From Candidatus Iainarchaeum sp. (GTDB lineage: Archaea > Iainarchaeota > Iainarchaeia > Iainarchaeales > GCA-2688035): 32,000 bases of DNA. Position 1 is the first letter of the stretch; the number at the start of each line of letters is the position of its first letter. This document shows, in pieces, positions 4,814-29,512 of this stretch. Below the pieces are notes generated by a model. It saw only the letters and a program-made list of their open reading frames with translations, searched no databases and was not told where the DNA came from. Location of the stretch: contig JAQTNI010000009.1 of the NCBI GenBank assembly GCA_028713935.1, forward strand, positions 1-32,000. The letters run 5' to 3'. The translations under genes and the position numbers were made by a program.

Positions 4814-4905
4814 TCTCAAACCTTCCAATAAACAATAGGCATAAAAAGAATAAATAACCCTATTAAAATCCTTTTCCTAAAAGAAGCCATTGAAGACAAT
4901 GCGAA

Positions 4906-7942: not shown

Positions 7943-7960
7943 CCAGCAACAATTATTCTG

Positions 7961-11285: not shown

Positions 11286-11291
11286 TTTTTT

Positions 11292-12765: not shown

Positions 12766-13782
12766 TTACATTCCAAGCATTTTGAGGCTGCCAAGTACCT
12801 GCACTAAAATGATTCTTATTATGAAAAACAAGGCTACTGCTATTATTCCGACTATTGGGATGTATCTTATTCCGTCTTTTTCTTTGCCAGAGTTTATTGT
12901 GCCCATTATTAAGGAGGAGAACAGGCATGTTACTCCGAGTGCAATCAGTGCGTACATTGTTGCGAATTCTTCTGTTATTGATATTTCGGGAATTCCGATT
13001 ATTCTTGTTATTGAGCTTTTTTGTGTTATTTCTTTTAATTGTTCTGGGTTCATGCTTAGCTGGCTTGTTTGCACGTTTAGCACTCCGACTATGTAAGAGG
13101 AAATGCTGAACAGTACTGGTGCTCCTATTGCTGCCCCAAAAAAAATGAGCATTATGTACATGCTTACTTCTGCTTTTGTTTCTTCTTTTAACGCGTTTTC
13201 TTCTCTTAAATCATCTGCCAGTTGTGATAATAGGTCCGCCACTTCTCCGCCGCTTCTTATGCCCTGGACTACCAGCCACATTGTTCTTTCAAGCAATGGG
13301 CTTTTGATTCTTGTTGTTATGTCTGTCAGGGCTCCTTCTATTCTTTCTCCTGCAAGGACTTTTCCGCTTGCAAGTTTTAGTTCGTCTGAAAAAACCCCGA
13401 ATTCCGGCCTTGCCGATGCAAGCAGTGCCCTTTCTGTTGTCAGGCCTGATTTCATGTTTGATGAAATCAATTGCAGCACATCCGGCAGGAGTTTGTCTAC
13501 AAATTTGCCCCTGCTTTCTGCAATTGTGTTTAGCCAGTAATATATGCTTCCTGCAAATCCAAGAAAAATTAGTGGAAATGTTGCAATTATTGGCAGTGAA
13601 AAGAATATTTGGAGGTTTGCTGATATTGCTATGCTTAGCACTGCCCCGAACAAAAAAATGAATCCAACTACGCTTAGTTCCTGTATTTCCCATCCAATGT
13701 AATCCATTTCTTTTTTGAATGCCCTTACTATGAAGGAGGGGACTATTGCGCCTACTCTTTGGTAAAAACCCATTTTTTTCAC
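12766..13782 (-). CDS. Type IV pilus platform protein, single T2SSF domain (TadC/EpdK-like)
   Basis: 338 aa polytopic membrane protein. The cytoplasmic T2SSF-type helical domain reads LLPDVLQLISSNMKSGLTTERALLASARPEFGVFSDELKLASGKVLAGERIEGAL ... VVQGIRSGGEVADLL. GTG start at 13782, or ATG at 13773. Confidence 0.85.
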   Translation of the reverse strand: MKKMGFYQRVGAIVPSFIVRAFKKEMDYIGWEIQELSVVGFIFLFGAVLSIAISANLQIFFSLPIIATFPLIFLGFAGSIYYWLNTIAESRGKFVDKLLPDVLQLISSNMKSGLTTERALLASARPEFGVFSDELKLASGKVLAGERIEGALTDITTRIKSPLLERTMWLVVQGIRSGGEVADLLSQLADDLREENALKEETKAEVSMYIMLIFFGAAIGAPVLFSISSYIVGVLNVQTSQLSMNPEQLKEITQKSSITRIIGIPEISITEEFATMYALIALGVTCLFSSLIMGTINSGKEKDGIRYIPIVGIIAVALFFIIRIILVQVLGSLKMLGM

Positions 13783-13786
13783 TTTG

Positions 13787-14662
13787 TCAGTTCATTATTG
13801 TTGGCCGTCTTGATTTTATTATGCCAATGTACATGAATTGCATTATTGTTATTCCTATTAATAATGCCCAGAACATCATTTCGTCTATTTTTATTGCGGG
13901 AAAGCTTCCCAGTATGATAAGAAATGTCAGTCCAAGCGCAGGCGCTATCACTCCAATCATCATGTATGCCAGGGAAAGAATCCTTAGTTGAGAGGAATAC
14001 ATGTTTATTGCTATTCTCTGGTCTCTTGCAGCGGATTTCACTGTTTCTTTTATTATGCTTGAAATGTCTCCGCCTGCTTTCATTCCGTTTACAAGCTGCC
14101 ATAATGCTTTTCTGAAATATTCGCTTGGGTTGTTTGTGGCAAGCTTTTGGAATACTTCATCGTAAGGCGTTCCAGTGTTTATTTCGTCAACTGCTTTTGC
14201 AAATTCTTTGCTTAATTCGCCATAATTGCTTTTTGCAATCATCTGCATTGCGTCAAAAAGGCTGACTCCGCTTTTTATTTCAATCAGCAAGGTTCTTAGT
14301 GCAAACAAGAGGTTTTTTTCCAGTTCCCTCTGCCTTTTCCTTATCTGCATTGTGGGGTACATTGAAAATTGGATAAACACTGCCAGTGCCATTATTGCTG
14401 CTATTGTGAATCCCAATAACAAAAAATTTGGAGTGACTTTTGTCAGGACTATTGTGAACAATGCGCCAAGCCATATGAAATAAAAACCTGCCAAAAAAAG
14501 CATCATTGCAAGGTATTCCCTTATTTGGAATTCCATTCTTGCCTGCTGCAATTGCAATTCCAGGTTGGGAAAAATTCCCTTGATTTTCATTGCCAGCGGG
14601 ACTAATGGCTGTGAAAACCTTCTCAGCATCGGGACAGGGAACAGGTTGAATGGCAGAGTCAT
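13787..14662 (-). CDS. Type IV pilus platform protein, single T2SSF domain (TadB/EpdJ-like)
   Basis: 291 aa. LLFALRTLLIEIKSGVSLFDAMQMIAKSNYGELSKEFAKAVDEINTGTPYDEVFQKL ... LVNGMKAGGDISSII, flanked by TM helices. It starts 3 nt after the ATPase stop. Confidence 0.85.
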   Translation of the reverse strand: MTLPFNLFPVPMLRRFSQPLVPLAMKIKGIFPNLELQLQQARMEFQIREYLAMMLFLAGFYFIWLGALFTIVLTKVTPNFLLLGFTIAAIMALAVFIQFSMYPTMQIRKRQRELEKNLLFALRTLLIEIKSGVSLFDAMQMIAKSNYGELSKEFAKAVDEINTGTPYDEVFQKLATNNPSEYFRKALWQLVNGMKAGGDISSIIKETVKSAARDQRIAINMYSSQLRILSLAYMMIGVIAPALGLTFLIILGSFPAIKIDEMMFWALLIGITIMQFMYIGIIKSRRPTIMN

Positions 14663-14665
14663 TTT

Positions 14666-16183
14666 TTACAGCTCCGGCTTTTTGTTTTTTTCCACAAGAT
14701 TTTTTATTTCATCAATGTCCTGGTAGCATTGCGCCATTATTTTGCCGACTTCGTTCACATTGTGAATGTCAAATTTTATCATCCAGTTCAATATTTTTGT
14801 TTTTGTTTTTAATTCCTGCTGTATTTCTCCCTGGCTCATTCCTGTGTGCAGTGACAATTCATCATAGAATCTTATGCTTTCATTGTGCGCGACAATCTGG
14901 TCATCGCTGCTTCTCCATCTGTAAATTATGTTTGGCTTTATTTCAAGTTCTTTTCCCCTTTTTTCAGGGATAAATTCCGCTGCTTCAAGCACTCTTCTTG
15001 ATCCCAGTCTCCTGTTTCTGAACATTACAATGTTTAAGTGCACTGAATCAAGCATTGAAACTGGGATTGAAACAGGCGGGTTTACAAGCCTTGTGATTGT
15101 TTCATCGGCTGTGTTTGCATGGATTGTGGTGTAAACACTGTGCCCTGTGTGCATTGCTTCAAACATTACTTCTGCTTCTCTCTGCCTTCTGACTTCTCCA
15201 ACAATCACCCTGTCAGGCCTCATTCTCAATGAATTCACAAGCAAATCAAGCATTGTTATTCCGCCTTTTCCTTCAGGATTCGGCTCTCTTGTTGTCAATG
15301 GAACCCAGTGCAAATAATCGGGAAGCATGAGTTCCCTAGTATCTTCAATTGAAAGCACTCTGTGGTTTGGCTGTATGAAGGGCATGCAGACATTCAAAAA
15401 GCTTGTTTTTCCCGATGCTGTTCCCCCGCTGATAATGATGTTTAATTCGTATTCCATTGCTTCCCATATCAGTGCCATTAGTTCTGCGCTGACTGTTTTT
15501 GTTTTTATAAAATCAGTTACTGTCCATGGGTCTCTTCTGAAGCGCCTTATTGTGACAGTGTTTCCCTTGCTTGAAATTGGAAAAAGAGTTGCGTTTGCCC
15601 TGTCGCCTGTTATGAGATGGGCATCAAGCAATGGCGATAAGATTGTTATTTGTTTTCCAACGCGCCTTGCGATTATGTTTGCATAGTTTTCTATGTCTGC
15701 CTCTGTTTCTATGCGGACATTTGTTTTGAGCCAGCCGTATTTTTTGTGGTAAACCCATACTGGTTCCTGGCTCCTGTTTATGACTATTTCCTCAAGGTTT
15801 CCGTCTGACAAAAGAAATTCTATTCTTCCAAGGCCCAGCATTTCATGCATTAATATTCCAACAAGCGCTTTTTTTGTTTCTTCTGTTGCGGTTGGCAGTT
15901 CGGAATCAAGCATTTTTTGGGCTTTTTCAACGAATTTGCCGCGGATTTTTTCCACTGCATCCATGTCAAGCTGGCCTGTTCTTGCAGCTGTTTCCGCTAC
16001 AAGGCTTTTTTTCAGGTTTGTGAGCAGTGCGCTTGTTCCGGCGCCATAGCTTGGAAAATTCAGGTAATACATGTTTACAAATTCTTTCGGGTCATGGATA
16101 ATGTTGGTTTCCACTTTCAGGTTGTCTGTTTCCACTGTGTAAGACTCAATTACCTGGTATTTTCCGTCCATTTCTGCCTGCAT
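14666..16183 (-). CDS. Archaeal type IV filament assembly ATPase (FlaI/PilB/GspE superfamily)
   Basis: 505 aa. Walker A IISGGTASGKTSFLN, Asp box SIEDTRELML, Walker B RPDRVIVGEVRRQRE, His box GHSVYTTIHANTA. N-terminal domain is typical of FlaI-like proteins. Confidence 0.92.
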   Translation of the reverse strand: MQAEMDGKYQVIESYTVETDNLKVETNIIHDPKEFVNMYYLNFPSYGAGTSALLTNLKKSLVAETAARTGQLDMDAVEKIRGKFVEKAQKMLDSELPTATEETKKALVGILMHEMLGLGRIEFLLSDGNLEEIVINRSQEPVWVYHKKYGWLKTNVRIETEADIENYANIIARRVGKQITILSPLLDAHLITGDRANATLFPISSKGNTVTIRRFRRDPWTVTDFIKTKTVSAELMALIWEAMEYELNIIISGGTASGKTSFLNVCMPFIQPNHRVLSIEDTRELMLPDYLHWVPLTTREPNPEGKGGITMLDLLVNSLRMRPDRVIVGEVRRQREAEVMFEAMHTGHSVYTTIHANTADETITRLVNPPVSIPVSMLDSVHLNIVMFRNRRLGSRRVLEAAEFIPEKRGKELEIKPNIIYRWRSSDDQIVAHNESIRFYDELSLHTGMSQGEIQQELKTKTKILNWMIKFDIHNVNEVGKIMAQCYQDIDEIKNLVEKNKKPEL

Positions 16184-16270
16184 AAAAATCTTTTTTTTTC
16201 CATTGATTTTTTTTAATTTGCCATATTATTAACGGGTTTTGTGGTTATTAAGTTTGCGGATTTTTGGTTT

Positions 16271-18733
16271 TCATTTTCCCAAACTTTTTTCTTTTTTGAT
16301 TTTTTTTTCTTTCTTGGGTTTTGAAGGCTTTACATAATCCGCGCTTTCAATTATTGTGTCCCCGAATGCGGGGTACTCTACTTTTATGAGGTGCTGGTCT
16401 TCAAGAATGTTTAAGAGTTCTTCAAGCCGTTTTTTTTCAATTTTGGTTTCTTTCCAGAGTTCCCCTGTCCTTATTTTTCCTTTTTCCCGGATTATCTGCA
16501 AAGTAAGGTCCATGTCTGTTTCAATCCTGAATTTCATTATTTCCTTTTCATTTGTCTTTAATTTTTCTTTTTCCTTGTTTTCAAGAGTGGTGGGAAAAGT
16601 CGGGATTTCAGCTTCTGACCAGCCGACTTCGCCGGGCTCAATAATCACTCTGCGGGGCTCTTCAGAAGTTTTTTTGAAAAACCTTGTAATGGGCAAAGCC
16701 CTTATGTGCAATTCTTTTTTTGGCCTTTGCATTCCTTCCACTTTTGCGCTTATTCTCCCCATTTCTTCAAGTTCTTCGCTGCGCGAAGCCCAGCCCTCTT
16801 CCCGGCTTGTCTTTTCTGTTTCTTCATTTCCTGCATCAGCATCAAGAGGTTTTTCGGCTTCAATGTCACCCGGCTTTTCAATTTCAATGGGCTCCTCAAT
16901 TTTTGCCTCGTAATTTTTCTGCACCTGCTCTTCTTTTTGAATTATTGTTTCATGCAGTGCCTCATTGACCTGGACATTTGTTGTTTGCTGGCTTTCTTTT
17001 TTCTGTGCTCTCCTGAAAATTCCCCCGAAAAAGCCTTTTTTTGCCTGTTGTGCAGGAACAGTTGTTTTTGCTGTTTGCACTTCAATTTCTTCCTGAGGCA
17101 ATGCTGTTTGCTCTTCTGTTATCCCTGAAATTTTGCTGTAATTTGGCGCAGGCGCCTGCACCGCAATTATTTTTTCTTTCGGGGTTTCCGCGCTTTTTTG
17201 CATTGCAGGCAACTGGCCTGTTGCAGTTGTTCCTGTTTGTGTTGCCGTGCTTGTTGTTTGTGGCTGTGTTTCAGGGCTTGTTTCCTGCATTGCTGTTGCC
17301 TGCCCAGGCAAGGCTTTTTCTTCTTCTTTTTGTTTTGTTAGCCAGGGAAACTGGAATCCTTTTTTTTCTATTTCCTGTTCTGCCTGCCTCTGCAATTCGT
17401 TCATTTTTGCGAGTTTTTCAAGGCTTGCAAGCAATTGGCTGCTGTCCAATGGCTTTATTTCCTGCACAATTTTTTTTTCCGGCATTTTGTAATTGTTTAA
17501 TAATTCCACAATGTAATTTTCTATTTCCATTATTTTTTCGTCGCTAACCCTGCCTGAAAGCTTTTGCTCTATTGTTTTTTCAAGTTCTTTGCTAAGCCGT
17601 TTTTCCCTGCCTTTGGGGGCTGCTTTTGTTTTTTCAAGGATTTTCTTTTTTTCTTCAAGCTCATAAAGCTTTGCCTGGTAATCCATTACTTTTTCCTGAA
17701 AATCTTGTAGAGGGATTCTGCGCTTGTAAAAATCTATTTCCAGGCGTTTCTGCATTCTTTTCATCTGGTCTATCTGCTGGTCAGTGCTGAGCATTTCCTC
17801 GTGGCTTTCTATGACAATTTTTGGCTTTGGCGATGCCCTTGCAAGGCTTGCTGCCGCAAGAGTAATTGCCTTTGCGGCTTCAGCCAGATCAGTCATTGTT
17901 TTCAGTTCCAATGGCGATTTTGTCTCTTCCCTGAAAATAATCTGGCCTTTTGCCTGTTCAGTTGCAATTTGCTCCATTTCAAGGTTTTCTTTTGCGGAAG
18001 AAACCTTGCTGAGAAGCGCTATCTGCATTTTGTAGTCCCGAATTTTTTTTGTTAGCTGGCTTTTTTTCCTGGTTTGTTCCTCTGAAAGTTTTTTTTCTTC
18101 CTGCGCATGCTTTAACTGGTTCAGTTCCCTCTGGTATCTTGCCTGCCATGATTCAAGCCTGGTTATTTTTGACCTTATTTTTTTCAGGTTTTCTTTTAAT
18201 GCTCCGGGCTCTTCCCTTATTTTTTCTGAAACCCCTTCAAGCCTTTCCATTTCAGGCGAAATTGCTTCAGGCTCTCCGCTTATTGCCTGTTCAGCAAACT
18301 CTTCAAATCCTTTTTTTGTTTCAGATGCAGGAATTTCCGGCATTGTTATTTTTTCCAGTTTTTCTTCCCTTGCCTTTCCGCCAAAAAGCCTCCTGAAAAT
18401 CCTTGAAAAAAAGCCCTGTTTTTTTCCTGATGTTTTTGTTTCTTCCGCAAACATCCGTTTCCTCGCTGCTTCTTCTATCTGGGATTTTATTATTTCCCTT
18501 AAAATCGGCTTGTCACCCGAAATCTGGGTTTCAATAATTCTGCCTATTTCGCTTTTCAACTGGTCAAAAGTATGTGCCTGTGCAACAAGAAGCATTCTTT
18601 TTGCCTCATCATCCTTTGCGCCAAGGCCCTGCAAGGTTTTAATTATTTTGTCTTCTGTTTCTCCTTCTCTCAGCATTTCGCCTATTATTTTGATTATTCC
18701 TTTTTCACTTTTTTCTTCAGGCATAAAAATCAT
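16271..18733 (-). CDS. 820-aa K/E-rich coiled-coil protein with C-terminal winged-helix-like domain; pilus-locus protein of unknown function
   Basis: Uninterrupted ORF between the prepilin genes and the ATPase. Long heptad-like K/E/Q/L regions, a T/Q/P low-complexity linker (aa ~477-520), two copies of a KKGFF..IFRR motif, and C-terminal DLTLQIIREKGKIRTGELWKETKIEKKRLEELLNILEDQHLIKVE (wHTH-like). Confidence 0.75.
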   Translation of the reverse strand: MIFMPEEKSEKGIIKIIGEMLREGETEDKIIKTLQGLGAKDDEAKRMLLVAQAHTFDQLKSEIGRIIETQISGDKPILREIIKSQIEEAARKRMFAEETKTSGKKQGFFSRIFRRLFGGKAREEKLEKITMPEIPASETKKGFEEFAEQAISGEPEAISPEMERLEGVSEKIREEPGALKENLKKIRSKITRLESWQARYQRELNQLKHAQEEKKLSEEQTRKKSQLTKKIRDYKMQIALLSKVSSAKENLEMEQIATEQAKGQIIFREETKSPLELKTMTDLAEAAKAITLAAASLARASPKPKIVIESHEEMLSTDQQIDQMKRMQKRLEIDFYKRRIPLQDFQEKVMDYQAKLYELEEKKKILEKTKAAPKGREKRLSKELEKTIEQKLSGRVSDEKIMEIENYIVELLNNYKMPEKKIVQEIKPLDSSQLLASLEKLAKMNELQRQAEQEIEKKGFQFPWLTKQKEEEKALPGQATAMQETSPETQPQTTSTATQTGTTATGQLPAMQKSAETPKEKIIAVQAPAPNYSKISGITEEQTALPQEEIEVQTAKTTVPAQQAKKGFFGGIFRRAQKKESQQTTNVQVNEALHETIIQKEEQVQKNYEAKIEEPIEIEKPGDIEAEKPLDADAGNEETEKTSREEGWASRSEELEEMGRISAKVEGMQRPKKELHIRALPITRFFKKTSEEPRRVIIEPGEVGWSEAEIPTFPTTLENKEKEKLKTNEKEIMKFRIETDMDLTLQIIREKGKIRTGELWKETKIEKKRLEELLNILEDQHLIKVEYPAFGDTIIESADYVKPSKPKKEKKIKKEKSLGK

Positions 18734-18751
18734 CTTCAGCTTGTATACTTA

Positions 18752-19903
18752 TCAGCTTGTTCCAATTTTAAGGTTTGTAAAGCCGGATTTTCCGACATTA
18801 AAATCAAAAGCATTGAATTTAACAAGAGCAATCGGCTCTTTGAAAATAATTTTTGTTGATGCAATTACTGGTGCGTGCTGGTCTGCTTTGTTGTCCATTC
18901 CAATAATTACTTTCGGGTCGAAATCTTCTAATTTTGACTCATTTAGGATAAAAATATCTGTATAGCCTTCGCCCGCAAGTTTTAGGCTGAAATAATTGTC
19001 TGCTGTGCCAACATGATTTGAGCCTTCTGTAGAACAGCAGGAAAGGTCGCAGGGAGGCTGTGGGTCGCAATCCGCAATGGGGATCTGGCTATTGATATTA
19101 ACATAAGGATTGGCATTTGATTGGAGAAATTCGTTTAACAGTGGGTTTTTTGAGCCATCCCCGAGGTCGCCATAATATTCCCATTTTTGTATCTGAATTG
19201 GCATGCCTGCATTTGGGCCTGTTGTTGGCTTTGGAATTGTCACATTAAAATCAATCATTCTTATTTTGCTTATGTCAAAGCTGCATCCATCATCTTCTCC
19301 ATCAGTAAAAATTTGCAGCAAGGTTCCGTCAGGCTGCGGATTATAGGATATGCATTCGTCCAAAATCAGGTATGTGAACTTGTCGTTTCCTCCCCAATCG
19401 GAATTTTTAGCAGCCCTTGCAGTTATGTTTAAGTCTCCGTTTATGTTTTTGTCTGAAACAAAAATCGAGTAAAGGTTCAGCGCATCATACATCGCTTTGA
19501 GCTGTTCATCATCGCTGCTTATCGGGGTTTCCTGTGAAATTTCTATCCATCCGCATCCGCTTGGCGAAGCATTTGGGCCTGTGCAGGGGCAAATGTCATG
19601 GTCTTCACTTTCGGGGCAGCCATTTTCTTGGACACAGTCATCTTTGCAGGCCATGTTTCCCGCATCATATTCAAACGGAGTTAGAATCCTGCTCTGCAGC
19701 CTTCCTGCATAGCCTGTTTTTACTGCCAATGTTTCGTTGTAAATGTTTGCAAAGCCAGTGTTTACTGCGTCAAAAGCGGTTTCTTCAACAGTGCCTTGTT
19801 TTTGCCCGATTGTTGTTTGTTTTACCCCGCTTCCTGCAAGAATTATTGCCAGTCCCATTAGGAATATTACAAATGCAAGGAAAAAGCCTTTTTTGCTGTT
19901 CAT
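18752..19903 (-). CDS. Prepilin-like protein (383 aa), KKG|F-type N-terminus
   Basis: MNSKKG|FFLAFVIFLMGLAIILAG followed by a Cys-containing, D/N/G-rich extracellular-looking domain. The ATG directly abuts the stop of the upstream giant gene (TAA-ATG), with GGTGA 5 nt upstream. Confidence 0.72.
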   Translation of the reverse strand: MNSKKGFFLAFVIFLMGLAIILAGSGVKQTTIGQKQGTVEETAFDAVNTGFANIYNETLAVKTGYAGRLQSRILTPFEYDAGNMACKDDCVQENGCPESEDHDICPCTGPNASPSGCGWIEISQETPISSDDEQLKAMYDALNLYSIFVSDKNINGDLNITARAAKNSDWGGNDKFTYLILDECISYNPQPDGTLLQIFTDGEDDGCSFDISKIRMIDFNVTIPKPTTGPNAGMPIQIQKWEYYGDLGDGSKNPLLNEFLQSNANPYVNINSQIPIADCDPQPPCDLSCCSTEGSNHVGTADNYFSLKLAGEGYTDIFILNESKLEDFDPKVIIGMDNKADQHAPVIASTKIIFKEPIALVKFNAFDFNVGKSGFTNLKIGTS

Positions 19904-22900: not shown

Positions 22901-24346
22901 TACTTCGTCTATTATGCCGTTAAATTCGTTTGTGATTGGCGGGACTCCTGGCCAGCCTGTTAAAGAATCACTGCCTGTTTTCCAAAATCCTGCATAATTT
23001 TTGGCTGTTCTTGTGATTGTGTCTCTTGCCACTGGGTTTGGGTTTCCGTCAACATAAAGTTTCATTCCTACTGTGCTGCTTAGTGTTGCTACAACATGGT
23101 GCCATTGCTGATTATTGTATCCTACCATGCTGCTTAGATTTGCAACAATATTTTGCTGTTGTTGGCTATTGTCTCCTGCCAATTGAGGAACTACCATTGA
23201 GGGGCTTGTTATTACTTTTTTTGTTGTGCCGGAAATAATTCCAAAGGAAAGAGTGCCATTGTCGCGCATATAAATTAGCCTGTCTGTATTTGTGCTTGTT
23301 CCTACCTGGCTGTTTCCAAAGCCTATCAGCCTTCCGCCATTTATGTTATCCGAAGTTGTTTTGAACCATAATTCTATGGAAAAATTTGTGGGATTTGTAA
23401 AGCCATTATATGTTGTTACAAAAGTGTTTGCTGAACCAAACCTTAGTGCGTGGCTTCCTCTTTTTCCCGGTGCAACCCATTTTTCCGTTGTGTTTGTGCA
23501 GTATCCATAATTGATTTGCCCGATTGGGCTTGCAGTTGCTATTGGCGAGTCCATGTCAAATTTTGACATTGTAAGGCTTCTGTCTATTATTGTCATTATT
23601 GCTATTGGGTCTCTTATTCCGCTTTTTTCGCTTATTGTGACTGTTGCCACTTCATTGGCATCTACTCCGTCTTCAGAATCATAACAGTACATTTTTGATG
23701 TTGGCACAAAAAGTTCCGGCGTCTCAGTGCCTGGAGTGTTTGTTGTACTTACTTTTGTTGTTATTGTTGTTGCTGTTTCGTCCAATTGCAGCGTTGTGTT
23801 TTTTTTGTTTTCAGAGGCTGTTTCTATTATGCAGTTGTTTGCAATGTTTCCTTTCATATAGGGCTGCCTTTTCATGAATGCCTGGCTTCCAGTGTAAATT
23901 TCCTGGTTTGAGGGTATTTGCTGGCCTCCTGTTGCTTCTGAAACTTTGTTGAAGCATTCGTTGAATTGTGTTGTGCCAGGAGGGGGATTTCTGCAGCTTG
24001 CCAGGTCTGTGTTTTTTTGTTCAAATTGTTCTATTTGTATGTTTAAATCCATGTTTTCCGGCAATATTTTTTTCATTTCAAAGTAAAGCAAATCTGCGTC
24101 AAAATTTGTAAGCGGGTTTCCTGTGTTGTCTACAAATATTTGCCCTATTATGCCGTTGTTGTCCATTGCAGTCACTGCATCGTCAAGCATTTGTTTTGCG
24201 TTTGCCTGCCGGGTTATGCTTGCAGTTGGCGCTTCCGTCATTATTCCCAATCCAAGATAGGATATCAGGGCAATGAGAATTGCTATTGCAAACAATGTGT
24301 CCAATGAAATTACAAATCCTTTTTCACGGGTTTTTTCAGCAATCAT
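19904..24346 (-). CDS. Giant prepilin-like adhesin candidate (~1480 aa) with LamG and vWA domains and Cys-rich C-terminus
   Basis: N-terminus MIAEKTREKG|FVISLDTLFAIAILIALISYLGLGI; the ORF extends to a TTG at 24355. LamG_3-like region aa ~296-505 (FSIELWFK ... WHHVVATL ... LYVDGNP ... FNGIIDEVRVYHRVLTAVEI). vWA-like region aa ~975-1215 (GETNIGDAIGIA, KKFIVLLTDGQAN, ITVYAIGFGGDA). A MIDAS-like IIDRSLTMS lies at aa 257-264. Confidence 0.85.
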   Translation of the reverse strand: MIAEKTREKGFVISLDTLFAIAILIALISYLGLGIMTEAPTASITRQANAKQMLDDAVTAMDNNGIIGQIFVDNTGNPLTNFDADLLYFEMKKILPENMDLNIQIEQFEQKNTDLASCRNPPPGTTQFNECFNKVSEATGGQQIPSNQEIYTGSQAFMKRQPYMKGNIANNCIIETASENKKNTTLQLDETATTITTKVSTTNTPGTETPELFVPTSKMYCYDSEDGVDANEVATVTISEKSGIRDPIAIMTIIDRSLTMSKFDMDSPIATASPIGQINYGYCTNTTEKWVAPGKRGSHALRFGSANTFVTTYNGFTNPTNFSIELWFKTTSDNINGGRLIGFGNSQVGTSTNTDRLIYMRDNGTLSFGIISGTTKKVITSPSMVVPQLAGDNSQQQQNIVANLSSMVGYNNQQWHHVVATLSSTVGMKLYVDGNPNPVARDTITRTAKNYAGFWKTGSDSLTGWPGVPPITNEFNGIIDEVRVYHRVLTAVEINQHYNGVFNNNANLVGYWAFNESSGNIASDSSGNNNTGALYNWLNGGGPSCVLNPDTPAQTTTNCPLSKASTAYTNKQSSGSYDFSSQGTLNKILSNDTLYFISSGTTYNGACKNNYAGDGTQGIWVTQPNGAIVNNVGYLYYEAISGNTVLSLGPSYGYNYGVNAWSDSPVGYYVYLRQNPASITASGLSASGTGTHEGTYQEGENPTDCSNYGNWQKISSYTFPYDLVKYNQIYGIGWQISNYQNYSGDCRWPRFYVTHKNSSGAVDWTSSTCAQGTPCSINWGSSLSGPFETTGDYELWAWSDSAVTFNVQTTVSNSFGLVFGNFGRTDSISGGTCSGATCTSTTTPMIPGETNCPTNPSNAVASLPSIESSATYLDTTTITDNYKFRGLKISTSLIGDSGAVCAGGAIGFENPISGSSNLKWYYPRPRKGWLDNNGYGVNCTNADSMDTCTSQSIIYDNTATGQPIPAGDYSVIGWAEYLTSYNIDWSIKRIDAALSAAITFINNAQWKSEDKMGIASYSTTAVLNQGPILLNAAGKTNLIGTLNGTDSFGPDPAKTMNPSGETNIGDAIGIASAAFNTQNKKFIVLLTDGQANKCEGGTACTPAEAVQYAILQADNARSTGITVYAIGFGGDAAAEDLRDIAKDPCTSYDATGACEEARMNGSNPKYPECFSNWPSLEINKVQQCGRYYFAADQSTLTEIYALIAEEIGTAIPNTKITIEAEPGTEICKCEKYETIGTDAYKCLKADDTPACTTNPEWTNQSITFDVDIAGEYKSQTFKERIPCTGEYCQSDTIKFPPPQTTIIKDQNNYIWGTETECDSSCMPNCPYDLATCRQTVPFGYRDCQIKFTCIGTDCGTIYGPQDTRLNFELNCVGFTAPKDLYIGFYKNNTMTTHIDTDLPPSGCTGNCGTFSITADKNLQYQPAAPNYTVSTSNTKLLGEGYIWGVISGAKDCSLHNTAQIYCLGESKVYYFKVQYAAWVK

Positions 24347-24360
24347 TTTTTCCAATCCGG

Positions 24361-24410
24361 CTTTAATTTATTTTATTATAATTAATATTTTTTTAATATA
24401 AAATTGTATT
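24361..24410 (-). promoter_or_regulatory. Near-100% AT promoter region upstream of the giant adhesin gene
   Basis: ctttaatttattttattataattaatatttttttaatataaaattgtatt. Several TATA-like boxes lie 20-60 nt upstream of ATG 24346. This is the only sizeable gap (90 nt) among the six prepilin-like genes. Confidence 0.4.
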
Positions 24411-24445
24411 GCCAATGTTTTTTTGGGCAGTTTTAGAAACCAAAG

Positions 24446-25066
24446 TCAATTGTATGCCCAGAGTTCAATTGTTGCTGTTCCGCTGTAGCCAGCCCCTTCA
24501 TAATAAACTATTCTTTTTTGCGCAATTACTTTTTTTGCGTATGCGCTCGGGGTTACGCCTGTTTCCATTTCTGTTTCCGAACCGCGTATTTTTTCCTTAA
24601 TCAATTTTTTTTCCGATGCATTATTAGGGCTAAAATAATAAATCTGGAAATAATAATTCATGTCTCCCAGGAGCAATAATTTTGCCTTTGTTTTTTCATA
24701 ATCGCCAAAGCAGTTTGCCTCGCAATCAGGCCAGATTTTTCCATATTCCACAAATTTTGCAAGCTTGTTTGAGTCTATTGCCCTGTCTCTTTTTGCAAGG
24801 CCAATGAACAGCACATTGTCAATGCTTGGGGCAAATTGCCAGTCTGTTCCGCCGTTTATTTTTTCGCCTGGGCTTTTTACAATAAAATTCAGTGTTCTTG
24901 CGCTCGTTGCAGCCATTTCATAGTCTTTCAGCTGGTTTTCTGCAAAAGAATTCTGGTTTTCCCAGATTGTAACCGCAATTGCAAGCACTGCGAGAAAAAT
25001 TGTTGTTCCAATGACTATGTCAAGGGAAACAGCCTGTGCTTTTTTGTCACTGCCCAGTGAATACAA
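24446..25066 (-). CDS. Prepilin-like protein (~206 aa)
   Basis: ...GSDKKA|QAVSLDIVIGTTIFLAVLAIAVTIW. The ORF runs to a GTG at 25075, but AGGTGG (25072-25077) followed by in-frame TTGs at 25069 and 25066 mimics the SD+TTG arrangement of the preceding gene. It overlaps the upstream gene's end. Confidence 0.7.
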   Translation of the reverse strand: MYSLGSDKKAQAVSLDIVIGTTIFLAVLAIAVTIWENQNSFAENQLKDYEMAATSARTLNFIVKSPGEKINGGTDWQFAPSIDNVLFIGLAKRDRAIDSNKLAKFVEYGKIWPDCEANCFGDYEKTKAKLLLLGDMNYYFQIYYFSPNNASEKKLIKEKIRGSETEMETGVTPSAYAKKVIAQKRIVYYEGAGYSGTATIELWAYN

Positions 25067-25457
25067 CAAAACCACCTTTTTTTGACAATTTATAGTTTCT
25101 AACTGTTAAAGAAATTCCACTTGCGTTTGTGTCCCCATGATCCTGATCAATCTGTGCGTTTCCAAAATAATGGCACGAATAAAGCCCCACTGTTATCTGC
25201 CCAGGATTTCCTATGATTTTTTGGATTGCGACATTTTCTCTTGCAACAAAAATATTTTTTTCCGCTATTCCCTGGCTTGAATAAATTTCTGAAATCGCAT
25301 CTGCTATTTTGTTGCATTCAATGCCGTCTGAATTTATGCCTGTTATAAAATTGGTTTGAACTGTTTGCTGCGCATAAGCAGTTACTCCAATCAAGAGCAA
25401 TGTCATTGCAACAAGCGCAGCAATGAGGAATTCAAAAGAAACCTGGGCTTTTTTCAA
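25047..25457 (-). CDS. Prepilin-like protein (136 aa)
   Basis: (M)KKA|QVSFEFLIAALVAMTLLLIGVTAYA. TTG start at 25455-25457, preceded by TAAGGTGGAACC (SD AGGTGG at 25462-25467, spacer 4 nt). Confidence 0.75.
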   Translation of the reverse strand: MKKAQVSFEFLIAALVAMTLLLIGVTAYAQQTVQTNFITGINSDGIECNKIADAISEIYSSQGIAEKNIFVARENVAIQKIIGNPGQITVGLYSCHYFGNAQIDQDHGDTNASGISLTVRNYKLSKKGGFVVFTGQ

Positions 25458-25466
25458 GGTTCCACC

Positions 25467-25994
25467 TTACTTTTCCAGCCGGATTAATTTCCTGTCAGTC
25501 CAGCTTACTTTAATTTTGTACCTGAAATTGTTTATCAAAATCGCAGTGTCAGTCCCGTCAGGTATTATAAGCCTTGCTTTTGTGGGATAAAGCAATTCGT
25601 TTCCAGAAATTTCAATTACTTTTACTGCGCTTGATTTTATGCAGTCATCCCCATTAGAGCACTGCTTGCCTGCGCCGCTGCAATTGCAGTTTGCTCCCTG
25701 TGCTCCATCACAGCCAATCATTTCCGCGTTTGTTTTGCAGAGGCTGTAGATGCTTATGCCTGTCACTTCGCCTGGCCAGCTTACTTCTGCAAATTGGACA
25801 TTGCCCGGGCCCATTGCATAAACAAGGTTTATTGTTTGTACAAGATTGTCAAGGCTTTCGCCTGCCTGTTGTGTGCTAATGTTCTGGCTTGTTGTTGCAA
25901 GTGAAGCGCTGAACAGGACAATGACTATTACCATTGCAAAAACGCTTACCATCAGGTATTCCATTGAAGCCTGCGCGGTTTTTTCTACTTTCAT
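25467..25994 (-). CDS. Prepilin-like protein (175 aa)
   Basis: MKVEKTA|QASMEYLMVSVFAMVIVIVLFSASLA, with Q at +1 and E at +5. ATG at 25992-25994 with GGTG just upstream. Internal Cys cluster CDGAQGANCNCSGAGKQCSNGDDC. Confidence 0.75.
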   Translation of the reverse strand: MKVEKTAQASMEYLMVSVFAMVIVIVLFSASLATTSQNISTQQAGESLDNLVQTINLVYAMGPGNVQFAEVSWPGEVTGISIYSLCKTNAEMIGCDGAQGANCNCSGAGKQCSNGDDCIKSSAVKVIEISGNELLYPTKARLIIPDGTDTAILINNFRYKIKVSWTDRKLIRLEK

Positions 25995-26059
25995 AGCACC
26001 AAAAATAATAAGGGAATTCTAATATTTAATTTAATCCATTGCTGTTACAGCCAAGAGTT

Positions 26060-29000
26060 TTAGCTGCAATTGCCGCTGTTCCAGGTTTTGCCTGCAAGAA
26101 CACAAATTTTGTCTGCTGTCAAGGCTTTTTTCCAGATTGAAACATCGTCAATCAAACCAGCAAAATGACCCGGTTCATCCTGCCAGCCAAAACCAATATA
26201 CGCCGCATGCAAATCGCTTGCATCAGAATAATCATGTAAAATCAGGGCAGGATTACTGGATTCGCCAGCCAGGCTTCCATCAATATAATACTTCCAGCCA
26301 ACGCCGCTTTCAAAAACAAAAGCAACCTGATGCCACTCATTTTCGGCAATTGTTCCAGTGGAAGTAGGCCAAGAATTAGACTGGTTGCTTCCGTTCCGAA
26401 CCATTGAAACCAAATGGCCAAAAGAATAAGAAGAAGAACTGCCGGCACTGAAATAATCAAATCCGCCTAAATGTTGGGTTACAATATTTATCTGATTCAC
26501 GTAATCCGGTTTAACCCAGGCAACAACAGTAGTAGAACTGTTCTCGCCGCCATACGTTGAAAGAGCACTCAAAGAACTGTCAAAACGAATATGGTCAGGG
26601 CCAGAAACACCACCGCGGAAAGAAAAAGCACCACTACCGTTGTGGCCTCCAGTTGCCTGACAAGTCGCTCCCACAACTGTTCCGTTACGATGATTTCCGG
26701 ACTGGTCCCAGGCATTGCAATGGTCAAAACTCCAATAAGCAACCAAGTCAGGGTCGCAATCGTTTGGGCAACTGGTAAAACTTTCCCCGCCAGCATTTTC
26801 ACAAATGCCATTATTGTTGCAAGAAGGGAGTCCATAAGAATGGCTACTCCAATCTAAAGGGCCAGTATTATCAGCAACCTCTACTCCATCAGAAAAACCG
26901 TCAAAATCAGAATCCGGATTAGTCGGGTCAGTACCGCGGGCAAACTCCTGCGAATTGATAAGGCTATCATTATCAGGGTCGCCAAGGCCATTCTGCGAAG
27001 TAATATTCCCAAAATACTGCACTTCCCAATCATCCCGCAAACCATCCCCATCTGCATCCAAACCCTCAGTAGTAAAGGAATCGACAGAACCCCAAAGAAT
27101 CTCATTCAAAATATCGGCAGCCCGATTTGAAGAACGGATGCGGAAATTATAATCAGTATTCGGATTCAAACCAGAAAGCGTTATGCTATGAAAAGTCGTA
27201 AAAGAAGGGTCACCTATGATCCCATCTGGGCCACTAAAATAGGTAGTAGGATGTGTCTCATGATAGGGATTGTACCACCAAGAACCATTGCTTGTGTAAG
27301 CAACCTCGCTATCAGAAGGCAAATTAGTCTCCCACTGAATCGTAAAAGAAGTGCCAGTAACTGGTATTATCTGAATATTTGTCGGAGCCCTAAACCAGCC
27401 ATTCTGTGCATCAACTGGCCAAGCAGTGTCAAGATTTGATGAATACGAAGCTTTCCTCTGATCATAAAGAGGCTTAAAATAACTCAGCCAAGCACCAGAA
27501 CGGCTAAATTGTGCACTATTAAGATTCTGCGCCAAAACACGGAACATTTCTTTTGTGGAAATAGCAGCACGCGCACTACTAACGCGAATATTTGAGCCAA
27601 TTGCCTGGGACATTCCATATCCTGAAACAAAAAATCTAAAATAAGGGTTATTAGGGCTCTCTACTTCAGCCATGGGCCCGGTTTCTCCTGTAAGCGTGTA
27701 ATCAACATACGCATCAATCATGACTGCCCTTCGGCCAGTATAAGCCAAATAAGCATCCCAGGCATCAACAGAATCATGATGATAAATAATTCCGTTATCA
27801 CCAATATCTGTGCGGACTTGGCGAATAAAATTATAATCCTGTTGCAAATCCCCTGCATCCGCATTGTCAAAATACCAGCCATCAAAATTATTTTCTTCCT
27901 GGAATTCTTTCATCCAAGACAAGGTTACCTGGATATCCTGCTGGTTCCACCAGTATATGGATGGCGCAGACATATAAGTAATGACTTTGAAATTGTGTGC
28001 ATGGGCAAAAGAAACAAAATCCTGCAATAACTGTTTGTCAATGTCCCGGATTTTATACCCCATAATGCCAGAAGGCAAAAGCACCGGGACTTCCCCTATT
28101 TTACCGGGAGTGTTTTCATATGCAACGCTTGCCCAAAGCAAAAAAACTCCAAAACCGTCGTTAACATAATTGTCCACATTTGTCCCGGACATCAGATTAG
28201 TCAAGTCATCAGGGGTGTATAAGAAATGAACAAAAGGCTTTGAGCTTGCCCCATATAATTTTTCAAAATCAAATTTTTTTGGGGGAAAAACCATGTTTCC
28301 CATTGAACTGCCGGCTCCCAAAGAAATGCTTGTAGAATCTGTTGTTTCATTTGAAACAACTGGGTTTCCCTGCATTTTTGCATGCAAAGAACCGCCATAC
28401 CCGTCTGTCCAAATTCTGTCTGTTCCTGTTCCTTTGTTCCAGGGCGCAGCAGCAACCAAATTGTTGTAGGTGTAGGCGAATGGCTCTTTGGCTTCAATAA
28501 TGAAAAAAGAATCCGAATTGAAAACAAAGCGTGCTTTGTCGCTTTGCACAATTGCCTGTATTGTTGTTGCGGATTCAACAGTTAAATTTGAAATTGTGTT
28601 TTCAAAAGAGATTTCTGCAACTTTTCTGGGGGTTTCTGTGTCATTATTGGTTGCGGGGTCAATGCGGCGCCATAATTCAATTCCGTCTTGTTTTATAATG
28701 TACAAGGCGCCTGTGGTTGTAATTTCAATTTGATCTTCGTCTTGAAAAGCAGAAAAGATGCTCATGCCAAAAAACCCGTTGCCAGTGCAGTCCAGTGGGC
28801 AGTTGCTTGCTGTTTCGCCTGCCTCGCATGTTCCGTTGTTGTTGCAAACGGCTTGTCCTGTGCATTGGCAGTTTGTGCAGGTAAATCCTGCTTGGCATTG
28901 CGCTTGCCCTGTCCCGTCGCATTGTTCTGTTTGGCCTTCGCTGTTTGGGTCGGTTATAATATTGTCTCCGCAATAGGTTGTGCAGTCTGTTGGGCAAGTG

Positions 29001-29512
29001 GCATTGGTTTCTCCTGTTTCGCATGTTCCGTTTCCACAGTTGCTTGTTGTTTGGCAGTCAGTGTCGTTTAAAGGAGTGCAGGTTGCTGGGCAGCAGTTGT
29101 CTCCGTTTGTGCAGGTTGTTATGTCTGTGTAGGTGCAGGTTTGGCTTGTGCAGGTTGCTGTTTTGCAGTTTTGTGATGTGCAGTCTGCTTCTGTTGTACA
29201 ACTTGTTCCTGTGTTTGTTTTGTTGAGGCAGTCTGGTGTTATTAGTATTGCTGTTGTTCCTGTGCATTTGTTTGCTGCGAATGACCATTCGCAGTCTGAG
29301 TATTGGCAGTTTCCTGTTCCATCCGGGTCGTTTCCTGCTTGGCCACATTGTGTGGATGAGAATTTTGCGCAGATTGTGTTCAGGACTTCTATTTGTGTGC
29401 TGTTGATATTTGTGCCGCTGGCATTGAAGAGTATTACAATTGCCAGTGCTGCCACTATTACTGCCCCGCCAATTATCAGCAGGTATTCCAAACTGCTTTG
29501 CGCGTTGTTCAA
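26060..29512 (-). CDS. Giant prepilin-like multidomain surface protein (1150 aa): Cys-rich modules, TIM-barrel-like region, FN3, TSP3-like Ca-binding repeats, LamG
   Basis: (M)NNA|QSSLEYLLIIGGAVIVAALAIVILF. TTG start at 29510-29512 with CGGTG 5 nt upstream. Three C-[GN]-N-[GN]-x-C-E-x-G-E-x4-C-P-x-D-C modules. FN3-like aa ~708-815 (TSFTIQWETN...LSGLNPNTDYNFRIRS). DADGDGLRDDWEVQYFGN...DPDNDSLINSQEFARGTDPTNPDSDFDG. LamG_3-like aa ~922-1135 (LVAYWSFD...WHQVAFVF...YIDGSLAG...FAGLIDDVSIWKKALTADKI). Confidence 0.85.
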   Translation of the reverse strand: MNNAQSSLEYLLIIGGAVIVAALAIVILFNASGTNINSTQIEVLNTICAKFSSTQCGQAGNDPDGTGNCQYSDCEWSFAANKCTGTTAILITPDCLNKTNTGTSCTTEADCTSQNCKTATCTSQTCTYTDITTCTNGDNCCPATCTPLNDTDCQTTSNCGNGTCETGETNATCPTDCTTYCGDNIITDPNSEGQTEQCDGTGQAQCQAGFTCTNCQCTGQAVCNNNGTCEAGETASNCPLDCTGNGFFGMSIFSAFQDEDQIEITTTGALYIIKQDGIELWRRIDPATNNDTETPRKVAEISFENTISNLTVESATTIQAIVQSDKARFVFNSDSFFIIEAKEPFAYTYNNLVAAAPWNKGTGTDRIWTDGYGGSLHAKMQGNPVVSNETTDSTSISLGAGSSMGNMVFPPKKFDFEKLYGASSKPFVHFLYTPDDLTNLMSGTNVDNYVNDGFGVFLLWASVAYENTPGKIGEVPVLLPSGIMGYKIRDIDKQLLQDFVSFAHAHNFKVITYMSAPSIYWWNQQDIQVTLSWMKEFQEENNFDGWYFDNADAGDLQQDYNFIRQVRTDIGDNGIIYHHDSVDAWDAYLAYTGRRAVMIDAYVDYTLTGETGPMAEVESPNNPYFRFFVSGYGMSQAIGSNIRVSSARAAISTKEMFRVLAQNLNSAQFSRSGAWLSYFKPLYDQRKASYSSNLDTAWPVDAQNGWFRAPTNIQIIPVTGTSFTIQWETNLPSDSEVAYTSNGSWWYNPYHETHPTTYFSGPDGIIGDPSFTTFHSITLSGLNPNTDYNFRIRSSNRAADILNEILWGSVDSFTTEGLDADGDGLRDDWEVQYFGNITSQNGLGDPDNDSLINSQEFARGTDPTNPDSDFDGFSDGVEVADNTGPLDWSSHSYGLPSCNNNGICENAGGESFTSCPNDCDPDLVAYWSFDHCNAWDQSGNHRNGTVVGATCQATGGHNGSGAFSFRGGVSGPDHIRFDSSLSALSTYGGENSSTTVVAWVKPDYVNQINIVTQHLGGFDYFSAGSSSSYSFGHLVSMVRNGSNQSNSWPTSTGTIAENEWHQVAFVFESGVGWKYYIDGSLAGESSNPALILHDYSDASDLHAAYIGFGWQDEPGHFAGLIDDVSIWKKALTADKICVLAGKTWNSGNCS

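Follow-up and report, generated by a model that had tools for sequence, protein, structure and literature searches.

A probable Epd/Tad-like type IV pilus operon of Candidatus Iainarchaeum with a split von Willebrand factor A protein and a predicted glycoside hydrolase-like module on a pilin-like protein

What are two pilin-like proteins of 1150 and 1480 amino acids (aa) doing in an archaeal pilus locus? The question is raised by ten minus-strand genes in the 32,000-nt stretch analyzed here (the window; positions 1 to 32,000 of contig JAQTNI010000009.1), which comes from an NCBI metagenome-assembled genome (MAG) of Candidatus Iainarchaeum sp. (DPANN; locus tags PHD95_023xx). How DPANN archaea make contact with and exploit other cells is largely unknown, and they are hard to grow. 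The answer that we consider probable is that the locus is the Iainarchaeum version of an Epd/Tad-like type IV pilus (T4P) operon. One of its two giants belongs to a conserved family in which a von Willebrand factor A (vWA) domain is split by an insertion of variable length, and the other carries what we predict to be an enzyme module of an undescribed glycoside hydrolase (GH)-like family. The features of the locus are as follows, with the open reading frame (ORF) and other evidence in brackets and an arrow at the predicted cleavage position of the class III (prepilin) signal.

26060..29512, minus strand: 1150-aa modular class III-signal protein (ORF, Pfam, PF04021, AlphaFold2, Foldseek)
29423..29512, minus strand: class III signal and hydrophobic helix of the 1150-aa protein, MNNA↓QSSLEYLLIIGGAVIVAALAIVILF, of the Flp/DUF361 type A↓QxxxEY
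27068..28774, minus strand: ~570-aa GH-like and FN3 module of the 1150-aa protein (homologues, AlphaFold2, Foldseek)
26102..26542, minus strand: lectin-like LamG domain (Laminin_G_3) at the C-terminus of the 1150-aa protein (Pfam 8.6e-20; match to PDB 4qvs)
25467..25994, minus strand: 175-aa minor-pilin-like protein (ORF, orthologues)
25047..25457, minus strand: 136-aa minor-pilin-like protein (ORF; two orthologues only)
24446..25066, minus strand: ~206-aa minor-pilin-like protein (ORF, orthologues)
19904..24346, minus strand: 1480-aa vWA modular pilin-like protein, MDD5163028.1 (Pfam, family alignment, scan for the metal ion-dependent adhesion site (MIDAS), splicing test)
21404..23557, minus strand: variable insertion within the vWA domain (Pfam, alignment, splicing test)
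18752..19903, minus strand: 383-aa class III-like protein with 12 Cys (ORF, orthologues)
16271..18733, minus strand: 820-aa Lys/Glu-rich protein (weak Pfam TFIIE_alpha match, composition, orthologues)
14666..16183, minus strand: assembly ATPase of the VirB11/FlaI/TadA family, 505 aa (Pfam, NCBIfam, PDB, motifs)
13787..14662, minus strand: platform protein 1, TadB/TadC-like, one T2SSF domain, 291 aa (Pfam 2.2e-16)
12766..13782, minus strand: platform protein 2, TadC-like, one T2SSF domain, 338 aa (Pfam 4.1e-17)

All ten minus-strand ORFs were recovered at the coordinates listed in an earlier note made from the sequence alone, and NCBI calls the same 1150-aa and 1480-aa products. The 1150-aa ORF is MDD5163032.1 ('hypothetical protein PHD95_02375') and the ATPase is MDD5163025.1. 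The vWA giant is 1483 aa long in its longest ORF (start 24355), which is used for its residue numbering below and is 100% identical to MDD5163028.1 (1480 aa, 'VWA domain-containing protein'), encoded on a contig of 35,405 bp. In gene order, six prepilin-like genes (18752-29512) are followed by the Lys/Glu-rich and probably cytoplasmic protein, the FlaI/TadA-family ATPase and the two T2SSF genes, with junctions of 65 nt, 9 nt, an overlap, 90-99, 0, 18, 87, 3 and 4 nt. Six of the nine junctions are therefore overlapping or no longer than 18 nt; the tight packing claimed in the earlier note stands, and its count of five is raised by one. The Shine-Dalgarno-like GGTG/AGGTGG elements that it described were found ahead of the starts of the 1150, 175, 136 and 209 genes, the last being the ~206-aa gene named after its longest ORF, which starts at 25075. 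Scans of the window for tRNAs and Rfam families returned nothing.

The six proteins ahead of the cytoplasmic one begin like archaeal prepilins. The N-termini read MNNA↓QSSLEYLL (1150 aa), MKVEKTA↓QASMEYLM (175 aa), MKKA↓QVSFEFLI (136 aa), ..SDKKA↓QAVSLDIVIG (~206 aa), ..TREKG↓FVISLDTLF (vWA giant) and MNSKKG↓FFLAFVIF (383 aa). We applied a FlaFind-like rule, which looks in the N-terminal 40 aa for either [KR][GA] or an A preceding Q, with 20 hydrophobic residues in a row after it; among the 101 ORFs of at least 80 aa in the six frames of the window, it was passed by seven, namely the six locus genes and a pilin gene at 9916. The six-frame translation contains six copies of the motif [GA]QxxxE[YF], three in the locus and three outside it, and each of them lies at the N-terminus of a gene. 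Q stands at +1 in four of the six locus proteins and in all three outside pilins, and QxSxE[YF] is present in three of the six. Pfam PF04021 (Class_IIIsignal) matched the first 40 aa of the 1150-aa protein with 26.1 bits (gathering cutoff 23.7, E 8e-6); the 136-aa protein scored weakly and the remaining pilin-like proteins did not score, so that five of the six are assigned to the class III type by motif and by motif conservation in orthologues, not by a curated model. The six proteins and the three outside pilins were all without an NCBIfam match. Among orthologues, the cleavage-type motif is [KR][GA]Q..(L/V)EY(L/M) for the 175 protein, [KR]GQ...D for the 209 protein, [KR]GF(A/V)(F/I)S(L/V)(D/E) for the vWA giants and [KR]G(I/V)(F/L)FT(F/L) for the 383 protein. 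The class III reading of all six N-termini, first proposed in the earlier note, is thus supported by the rule, the motif scan and motif conservation, and for the 1150-aa protein by PF04021. The pilin-like proteins are also Cys-rich (1-8%), rich in N-x-S/T sequons and low in K+R, while the 820-aa protein contains no Cys and 18.5% K+R, as expected for proteins outside and inside the cell, respectively.

The remaining genes would supply an assembly machine. The ATPase matches Pfam T2SSE (9.1e-35), and the Walker A, Walker B and His-box strings read from it earlier were confirmed at residues 253, 322 and 347. Its further PDB matches, after the best one discussed below, include FlaI (2e-51) and CpaF (6e-49). 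Its best NCBIfam match was the FlaI model NF058587, with 275 bits against a cutoff of 550; it scored 188 bits against the TadA family model TIGR03819 (cutoff 373) and 138 bits against the BasE bindosome model NF053672 (cutoff 1000). The platform is split over two genes with one T2SSF domain each. The 820-aa protein ends in a winged-helix-like domain (16376-16543; weak match to Pfam TFIIE_alpha), for which a PDB sequence search gave nothing usable, and it carries two basic 'GFFxxIFRR' motifs. The two copies of this motif read 'GFFSRIFRRLFGGK' and then 'GFFGGIFRRAQKK', and 'GFFxRLF'-type strings were seen near the N-termini of several orthologues (among loci L003-L081), in which otherwise only the C-terminal winged helix is conserved. 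This basic motif could be a membrane-targeting peptide, and the protein is likely a scaffold or regulator.

The earlier note had proposed a comparison of synteny in related DPANN genomes. When GTDB species representatives were scanned with the ATPase, 80 loci with 53-76% identity were obtained, nearly all from Iainarchaeum MAGs and some from Aenigmatarchaeota, including the complete genomes CP010424.1 (AR10), CP064981.1 and CP066684.1. Their composition was mapped by tblastn and blastp at E 1e-4, and the counts, being BLAST-level, are lower bounds. The locus recurs in dozens of Iainarchaeum genomes in the order 175-like, (136), 209-like, vWA giant, 383-like, Lys-rich winged helix-turn-helix (wHTH) protein, ATPase, TadC1 and TadC2. 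ATPase, TadC1 and TadC2 were found together in 64/64 loci, the vWA giant in 36/51 and the wHTH protein (the C-terminal domain of the 820-aa protein) just upstream of the ATPase in 36/51. A 'QA(G/A)LEYLMTYGWAL' pilin lies close to TadC2 in relatives, usually on the opposite strand, with an orthologue of the pilin at 9916-10443 downstream of TadC2 in 37/41 loci, and a KaiC pair lies a few kb away, with a KaiC homologue within 10 kb of the ATPase in 24/32. Five loci (L013, L015, L016, L059 and L073) were deposited as Falkowbacteria, Chloroflexota, Thaumarchaeota or Methanosarcinales and are probably mis-binned contigs.

The small pilin-like proteins are conserved to different degrees. Orthologues of the 175-aa protein were found in 22/51 loci, some with long C-terminal extensions, and a PDB sequence search with this protein gave nothing usable. 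The ~206-aa protein, which likely starts at a TTG after GGTGG, likewise has orthologues in 22/51 loci. The 136-aa protein, which has AGGTGG 5 nt before its TTG start, is poorly conserved and has two orthologues only. The 383-aa gene, whose start abuts the stop of the vWA gene with no gap, has orthologues in 23/51 loci, always directly following the vWA giant. The related loci contain 135 DUF361-type ORFs; 127 of them have a length of 100-200 aa and only 8 reach 250 aa or more, the longest having 941. In a scan of the four largest, MG2-like matches were obtained for two (one above the Pfam cutoff) and nothing for the other two. The first pilin, of the 175 type, is extended to 470-951 aa by beta-rich domains in five loci (L012 4523-5944, L044 5121-6548, L014 5442-6872, L019 3579-5624 and L022 4368-7223), and the extension in L019 gave an MG2-like match, that in L022 a weaker one. 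It follows that the operon repeatedly begins with a gene for a long pilin, and the hydrolase-like module was found on none of these extended first pilins.

Three further pilin genes lie outside the coordinates of the earlier note, together with a pair of KaiC-like genes.

9916..10443, plus strand: 175-aa pilin, MNSRG↓QAALEYLMTYGWAL (FlaFind-like rule, motif scan, orthologues)
31032..31733, plus strand: paralogous pilin, 233 aa, ..KPSA↓QAGLEYLMTYGWAL (motif scan)
461..1309, minus strand: paralogous pilin with a Cys-rich C-terminus, MADMQQKKSKA↓QAGLEYLMTYGWAL; the longest ORF extends to 1429 (motif scan)
3471..4828, minus strand: pair of KaiC-like ATPases, 236 and 215 aa (Pfam KaiC 2.1e-63)

The N-termini of the three outside pilins are nearly identical (Q A G/A L E Y L M T Y G W A L), and their mature lengths are 171, 226 and 272 aa, one of them with a Cys-rich tail (7.8% Cys). 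Together with the six locus genes they bring the class III proteins of the window to nine, and our guess is that the 9916-10443 pilin is the best candidate for the major pilin. The set of six genes proposed earlier was therefore kept and its extent was not, in that the likely major pilins lie beyond it. One of the two KaiC-like proteins is canonical (KaiC 2.1e-63) and the other degenerate (DUF7504/KaiC); the 236-aa protein scored 47 bits against the ArlH/FlaH model (cutoff 215). An association of KaiC genes with such pili has been reported (PMC4858521; PMC9563170), and the pair here probably regulates the pilus system.

The larger of the two giants matches Laminin_G_3 and VWA in Pfam. It comprises the signal (residues 1-38), an N-terminal module with four Cys (39-249), the first strand of the vWA domain (beta1) with a MIDAS-like DRSLT (250-266), an insertion of 718 aa (267-984), the vWA remainder (985-1215) and a Cys-rich C-terminal domain (1216-1483). 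The insertion holds a LamG domain (residues 313-498, 22862-23419) and beta-rich 'C.NY.NW' modules. In an alignment of 24 N-terminal regions of the family, the signal is followed by an amphipathic helix ending in a near-invariant Gly and by four invariant Cys, and the motif 'R.P.DhhhhD.SGSM', which represents vWA beta1 and the MIDAS, appears ~240 residues past the signal. In Pfam, the match to the remainder of the vWA domain does not begin until residue 989. We therefore joined residues 244-270 in silico to 985-1215, whereupon VWA_2 aligned over its full length (1-107/107) and the score rose from 33.8 to 43.0 bits, which indicates that an insertion interrupts the vWA domain immediately past the MIDAS loop. 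The spacing at this point is 118-941 aa in 38 orthologues, with a median of 350 (727 aa here), and it explains most of the size range of the vWA giants, 649-1728 aa. The vWA giants are thus a conserved family defined by a class III signal, a four-Cys module and a vWA domain split after its MIDAS.

In L030, L041, L060 and other loci, 'YAYIADGSAGLRVVDVS'-type segments resembling LVIVD/beta-propeller repeats follow the MIDAS in place of LamG, and different modules seem to have been swapped into the one site. The best PDB matches of the MIDAS segment were pilus tip adhesins, with SpaC at E 0.002 and Mfa5 and Streptococcus sanguinis PilB weaker; a PDB sequence search with the C-terminal half of the vWA domain gave nothing usable, and a homology search with the spliced vWA query returned a single protein. 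Given that the differences in size trace to a single position next to the metal-binding adhesion site, the insertion is a natural candidate for the specificity determinant, and we read the vWA giant as a tip adhesin whose insertion would set ligand specificity. The likening of this protein to TadG/PilY1 in the earlier note appears reasonable.

The 1150-aa protein is built differently. Its Pfam matches are Laminin_G_3, fn3/Pur_ac_phosph_N, TSP3_bac and, weakly, Class_IIIsignal, and its layout consists of the signal and helix (residues 1-30), a Cys-rich stalk (45-246), a GH-like region (247-709), an FN3 domain (710-815), TSP3 Ca-binding repeats (816-892) and LamG (991-1137). No globular pilin domain is present past the helix, and the Cys/Thr-rich stalk of ~200 residues comes next. 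Residues 247-815 are 34-64% identical to about 30 proteins, of which the named ones come from Patescibacteria and Planctomycetota MAGs and from one archaeal contig; these homologues carry Sec signals or transmembrane (TM) anchors and extra domains such as beta-helix, LamG and dockerin. An alignment of 21 sequences of the module showed the invariant motifs WTDGYGGSL, DGWYFD, HHDSVD and GETG, with the invariant residues W368-T369-D370, D549, H579, S581, D583 and E610. Residues 247-709 gave no Pfam or PDB sequence match, either as a single sequence or as a 21-sequence profile, and single members of the module family matched DUF4434, Spherulin4 and GH85 weakly.

The fold of the module was approached by modeling. 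AlphaFold2 with the 21-sequence alignment gave a model (pLDDT 82.9, pTM 0.81) of an N-terminal beta-sandwich, a (beta/alpha)8-like barrel and FN3. The top 50 Foldseek matches listed against the PDB were all GHs or related alpha-glucan enzymes with a probability of 1.00; the best was the GH36-like alpha-galactosaminidase 9awt (E 1.5e-10), and others were GH31 sucrase-isomaltase, GH97, GH27 alpha-galactosidase and GH13 pullulanase and GlgE, with an identity of ~9% and a whole-chain TM-score of only ~0.3. D549, D583 and E610 each follow directly after consecutive predicted strands, and their invariance suggests that they may be catalytic. On the strength of this model, we propose that the module represents an undescribed GH-like family and a predicted enzyme. 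The earlier note had called both giants adhesin-like, with LamG, vWA, FN3, Ca-binding and Cys-rich modules as adhesive and possibly enzymatic domains; the 1150-aa protein does not appear to be an adhesin only, its main part being a predicted enzyme with a GH-like fold.

An exhaustive HMMER search of 1.84 billion cluster representatives retrieved 309 clusters at E<=1e-30, and the module is present in about 100 of them. The module proteins P0001-P0029 and P0105-P0237 were often seen joined to beta-helix, LamG or dockerin domains. No class III motif was found at the N-terminus of any of the homologues inspected (about 165), that is, in 0/31 from the first search and 0/134 further HMMER representatives, and the 1150-aa gene was absent from all 80 related pilus loci. 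A beta-CASP gene lies directly upstream of the first pilin gene in L044, and a beta-CASP gene also precedes the 1150-aa gene here. We regard the 1150-aa protein as a recent, lineage-specific addition, with an architecture found once in these sets and a putative activity and location.

An outline of how these proteins might work together can be drawn from what is known of their families. Pilins would be cut after [KR/x][G/A] by a prepilin peptidase encoded elsewhere, and they would then be pulled from the membrane and polymerized by the ATPase and both TadC-like platform proteins. The shaft would be built from the separately encoded 'QAGLEYLMTYGWAL' pilins, i.e. the 9916-10443 product and its two paralogues, and the six locus genes would, by analogy with GspK, PilB and TadG, supply minor or tip subunits. 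The 175-, 136-, ~206- and 383-aa proteins may prime assembly and carry the large subunits, with the vWA giant as a tip adhesin whose lineage-variable insertion sets ligand specificity. In the 1150-aa protein, a helix-only Flp-like pilin module and the Cys-rich stalk would carry the GH-like enzyme, FN3, Ca-binding and LamG parts, and with such a module on a pilin-like protein the system would present both an adhesin and an enzyme. Accessory or regulatory roles would fall to the KaiC pair and to the Lys-rich wHTH protein.

Several observations weigh against a pilus of this kind. No prepilin peptidase was found in the 32-kb window, and multi-TM filters, one of them requiring G.[GA]D, yielded no peptidase candidate within 10 kb on either side of the ATPase in 80-82 related loci; the matches that the screen returned, antisense artefacts and one flippase-like protein, were rejected. 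A six-frame motif scan of the window found no ~70-aa Epd/Flp-type major pilin ORF. The best solved relative of the ATPase is Archaeoglobus fulgidus GspE (2oap, 4e-68) and not an Epd or Tad reference. AT-rich, TATA-like boxes lie upstream of the 1150, 175, 1483 and ATPase genes, so that the locus may form perhaps three or four same-strand transcription units. The MIDAS of the vWA protein in the window reads DRSLT where orthologues have DxSGS, and a structure model of the vWA family (P0034, 3 sequences) had a pLDDT of 38.5 and was discarded. A single tip may not have room for two subunits as bulky as those of 1150 and 1480 aa. Finally, the closest homologue of the 1150-aa protein, the archaeal P0001 (64% identity), has a plain TM N-terminus and is encoded outside any pilus locus, between DUF655/Rpb4/L21e genes and the contig end; in view of this anchor, the class III helix of the 1150-aa protein may be only a membrane or pseudopilus anchor.

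A bolder form of the pilus reading, which we advance tentatively as a possibility, is that the 1150-aa protein is polymerized at the tip and delivers the GH to partner-cell envelope glycans or exopolysaccharide, with LamG and FN3 modules guiding the hydrolase to glycans and the vWA insertion picking the surface. If this is true, the enzyme and the vWA pilin would together serve a DPANN archaeon as a contact organelle that grapples and cuts. The role in host attachment by an episymbiont for which the earlier note saw a strong candidate here is neither supported nor contradicted by these results.

As the main rival to the pilus reading, though an unlikely one in our estimate, we consider that the locus instead builds a bindosome-like or type II secretion system-like surface display, in which a short pseudopilus or stub is formed and the class III helices anchor enzyme and adhesin with no long pilus. 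Archaeal class III signals are widespread on non-pilin cargo such as substrate-binding proteins (10.64898/2026.04.22.720090), and the 1150-aa protein offers only a helix and a stalk where a globular pilin domain would be. The ordinary TM helix of its closest homologue further suggests that anchoring, not polymerization, may be the conserved need. However, the three outside pilins are of ordinary size with near-identical N-termini, one of them being syntenic with TadC2 in nearly all loci compared, and this fits a real filament. The BasE score of the ATPase also remains far below its cutoff, and domain scans of the window found no substrate-binding proteins or ABC transporters.

We consider it improbable that the giants are ordinary Sec-inserted, N-terminally anchored surface proteins of the surface-layer type that merely lie beside a pilus operon. 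Such a reading could draw on the single N-terminus that reaches the curated class III model, on the 1483- and 383-aa proteins (KG↓F...), which match no Pfam/NCBIfam family there, on the failure of the peptidase screen and on possible separate promoters. Across dozens of species, however, the vWA giant and the 383-aa protein keep both the [KR]G and hydrophobic motif and their place between the small pilins and the ATPase; the junctions on either side of the 383-aa gene measure 0 and 18 nt, and the FlaFind-like rule was passed by no unrelated ORF in the window.

An archaellum-related motility or DNA-uptake apparatus, brought to mind by the FlaI model as best NCBIfam match, by the nearby KaiC/FlaH-family ATPases and by the proposal that DPANN pili import DNA (PMC9563170), is very improbable, since the FlaI and ArlH scores fall below their cutoffs (on which ground we rejected the archaellum), Pfam scans of the window proteins matched no archaellin or ArlF/G/X/CDE families, the platform is split where ArlJ is a single two-domain protein and no DNA-binding or competence proteins are present. 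The earlier note's reading, in which the locus encodes an archaeal type IV filament, divides its platform over two genes and lacks archaellum parts, thus holds.

Other genes of the window were noted in passing. An AbiEii toxin (Pfam 7e-32) and an AbiEi-like antitoxin are encoded at 10527-12002 (minus strand), between TadC2 and the 9916-10443 pilin; the pair has no homologue in any of the 80 related loci and therefore looks like a recent insertion. At 7373-8446 (plus strand), a CoaE-family dephospho-CoA kinase (Pfam 2.5e-33) adjoins a CoaD-like cytidylyltransferase; these are bacterial-type enzymes for the last steps of coenzyme A (CoA) synthesis and would be unusual for an archaeon. Between the KaiC pair and the CoA genes, two overlapping genes for glycosyltransferases of the GT4 family (4906-7303, minus strand) were found; these enzymes could glycosylate surface proteins including the sequon-rich pilins, with no direct link seen. 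A stand-alone Cas4-like PD-(D/E)XK nuclease is encoded at 1381-2040 (minus strand; Cas_Cas4 1e-9), and neither further cas genes nor repeats came to notice in the window. A toxin-antitoxin-like cluster at 8671-9764 consists of a PIN-domain protein (8933-9451, plus strand) flanked by two short minus-strand ORFs without Pfam match.

Taken as a probable T4P operon, the locus provides a pilus operon conserved in Iainarchaeum with a defined minor pilin set. It also provides a fusion of a widespread uncharacterized GH-like module to an archaeal class III signal, the only one found so far. Should a filament carry the fused protein, the idea of modular pilins would extend from bacterial adhesins to archaeal enzymes. 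As a sizeable unannotated enzyme-like family, the ~570-aa module is of biochemical interest apart from the pilus.

We compared the locus with known systems. Clade 1 archaeal T4P comprise an ATPase, two TadC proteins, at least five minor pilins, stand-alone major pilins and the peptidase EppA, together with large PilY-like tip adhesins of lectin fold (Makarova, Koonin & Albers 2016, PMC4858521); System 1 is defined by two platform genes and has DPANN among its hosts, and subsystem 4A in some DPANN likewise has two platform genes (Sivabalasarma & Albers 2026, 10.64898/2026.04.22.720090). DPANN T4P islands full of unrecognizable pilins had already been flagged (Makarova et al. 2019). Like System 1 and the Epd pilus of Methanococcus maripaludis, the locus combines one ATPase, a two-gene platform, at least five class III minor pilins, a QxSxE-type (DUF361/PF04021) signal with Q at +1, major pilin genes set apart and a DPANN host, and its large proteins, like those of clade 1, are predicted tip adhesins. 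The statement in the earlier note that no characterized system could be matched was thus too strong, given this clade 1/System 1 layout and the conservation of the locus. Unlike Epd, there is no EppA-type peptidase in the window or in the flanks of the 80 related loci and no major pilin of ~70 aa that lacks a globular domain. Laminin_G_3, vWA or the GH-like module is found on the large proteins, which are not annotated as DUF2341, and neither the KaiC pair nor the Lys-rich wHTH protein belongs to the Epd set. The likeness to System 1 rests on layout and signal type, with the ATPase compared through PDB and NCBIfam scores only.

With the bacterial Tad system, the locus shares a TadB/TadC-like split platform, the Flp-like motif G/A↓xxxxE[YF] and, as with TadG, an operon gene for a large vWA protein that has a hydrophobic segment near its N-terminus. 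It differs from Tad in being archaeal, in having no RcpA or TadD outer-membrane parts and no TadZ, in pilins far larger than Flp and in an ATPase below the trusted score for TadA; the window proteins gave no matches to Flp_Fap, TadZ or secretin families, so that the Tad likeness is one of motif and layout only. Within DPANN, Tad-like clusters with paired kaiC genes are reported from Nanohaloarchaeota and Undinarchaeota, which share TadA/B/C-type genes and LamG surface proteins with the locus, the latter being proposed for host contact (PMC9563170). Those clusters have no annotatable pilins and some encode a TadV peptidase, whereas nine pilin-like genes and no nearby peptidase were found here.

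For the idea of a functional module grafted onto a pilin, there are parallels in bacteria. Modular pilins with vWA, lectin, FN3, PF13385 and peptidase modules have been surveyed in bacteria, with PilB modeled at the tip and a largest member of 860 residues (Raynaud et al. 2021, PMC8179133). S. sanguinis PilB (vWA) and PilC (lectin) share with the locus a class III signal, a pilin module with a grafted functional module, a vWA domain (predicted here) with MIDAS and flanking 'arms', ConA-like lectin modules and a predicted tip location. Their signal is of the bacterial IPR012902 type, whose N-methylation motif does not apply to pilins of archaea, and not of the archaeal DUF361 type; PilB is ~50 kDa compared with 1150 and 1480 residues here (up to 1728 in relatives), the vWA domain here is split by a 118-941-aa insertion, and a GH module is not reported in that survey (PMC8179133). 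SpaC, RrgA and Mfa5 also place a vWA/MIDAS at a pilus tip with insertions beside the MIDAS face, but they are assembled by unrelated pathways (sortase, or type V fimbriae) and have much shorter insertions, and the likeness is confined to the vWA beta1/MIDAS segment. We found no description of a split-vWA pilin family or of a hydrolase-like pilin in the literature.

Archaeal type IV filament machines have been proposed to be 'functionalized' with class III binding proteins (10.64898/2026.04.22.720090). As in the Sulfolobus bindosome, non-pilin functional proteins carry class III signals here and would be mounted on such a machine; the bindosome cargo consists of ABC-transporter binding proteins encoded beside transporters, whereas the putative cargo of this locus, a hydrolase-like enzyme together with an adhesin, has its genes within a pilus operon. 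In sum, the locus probably belongs to a known kind of pilus system.

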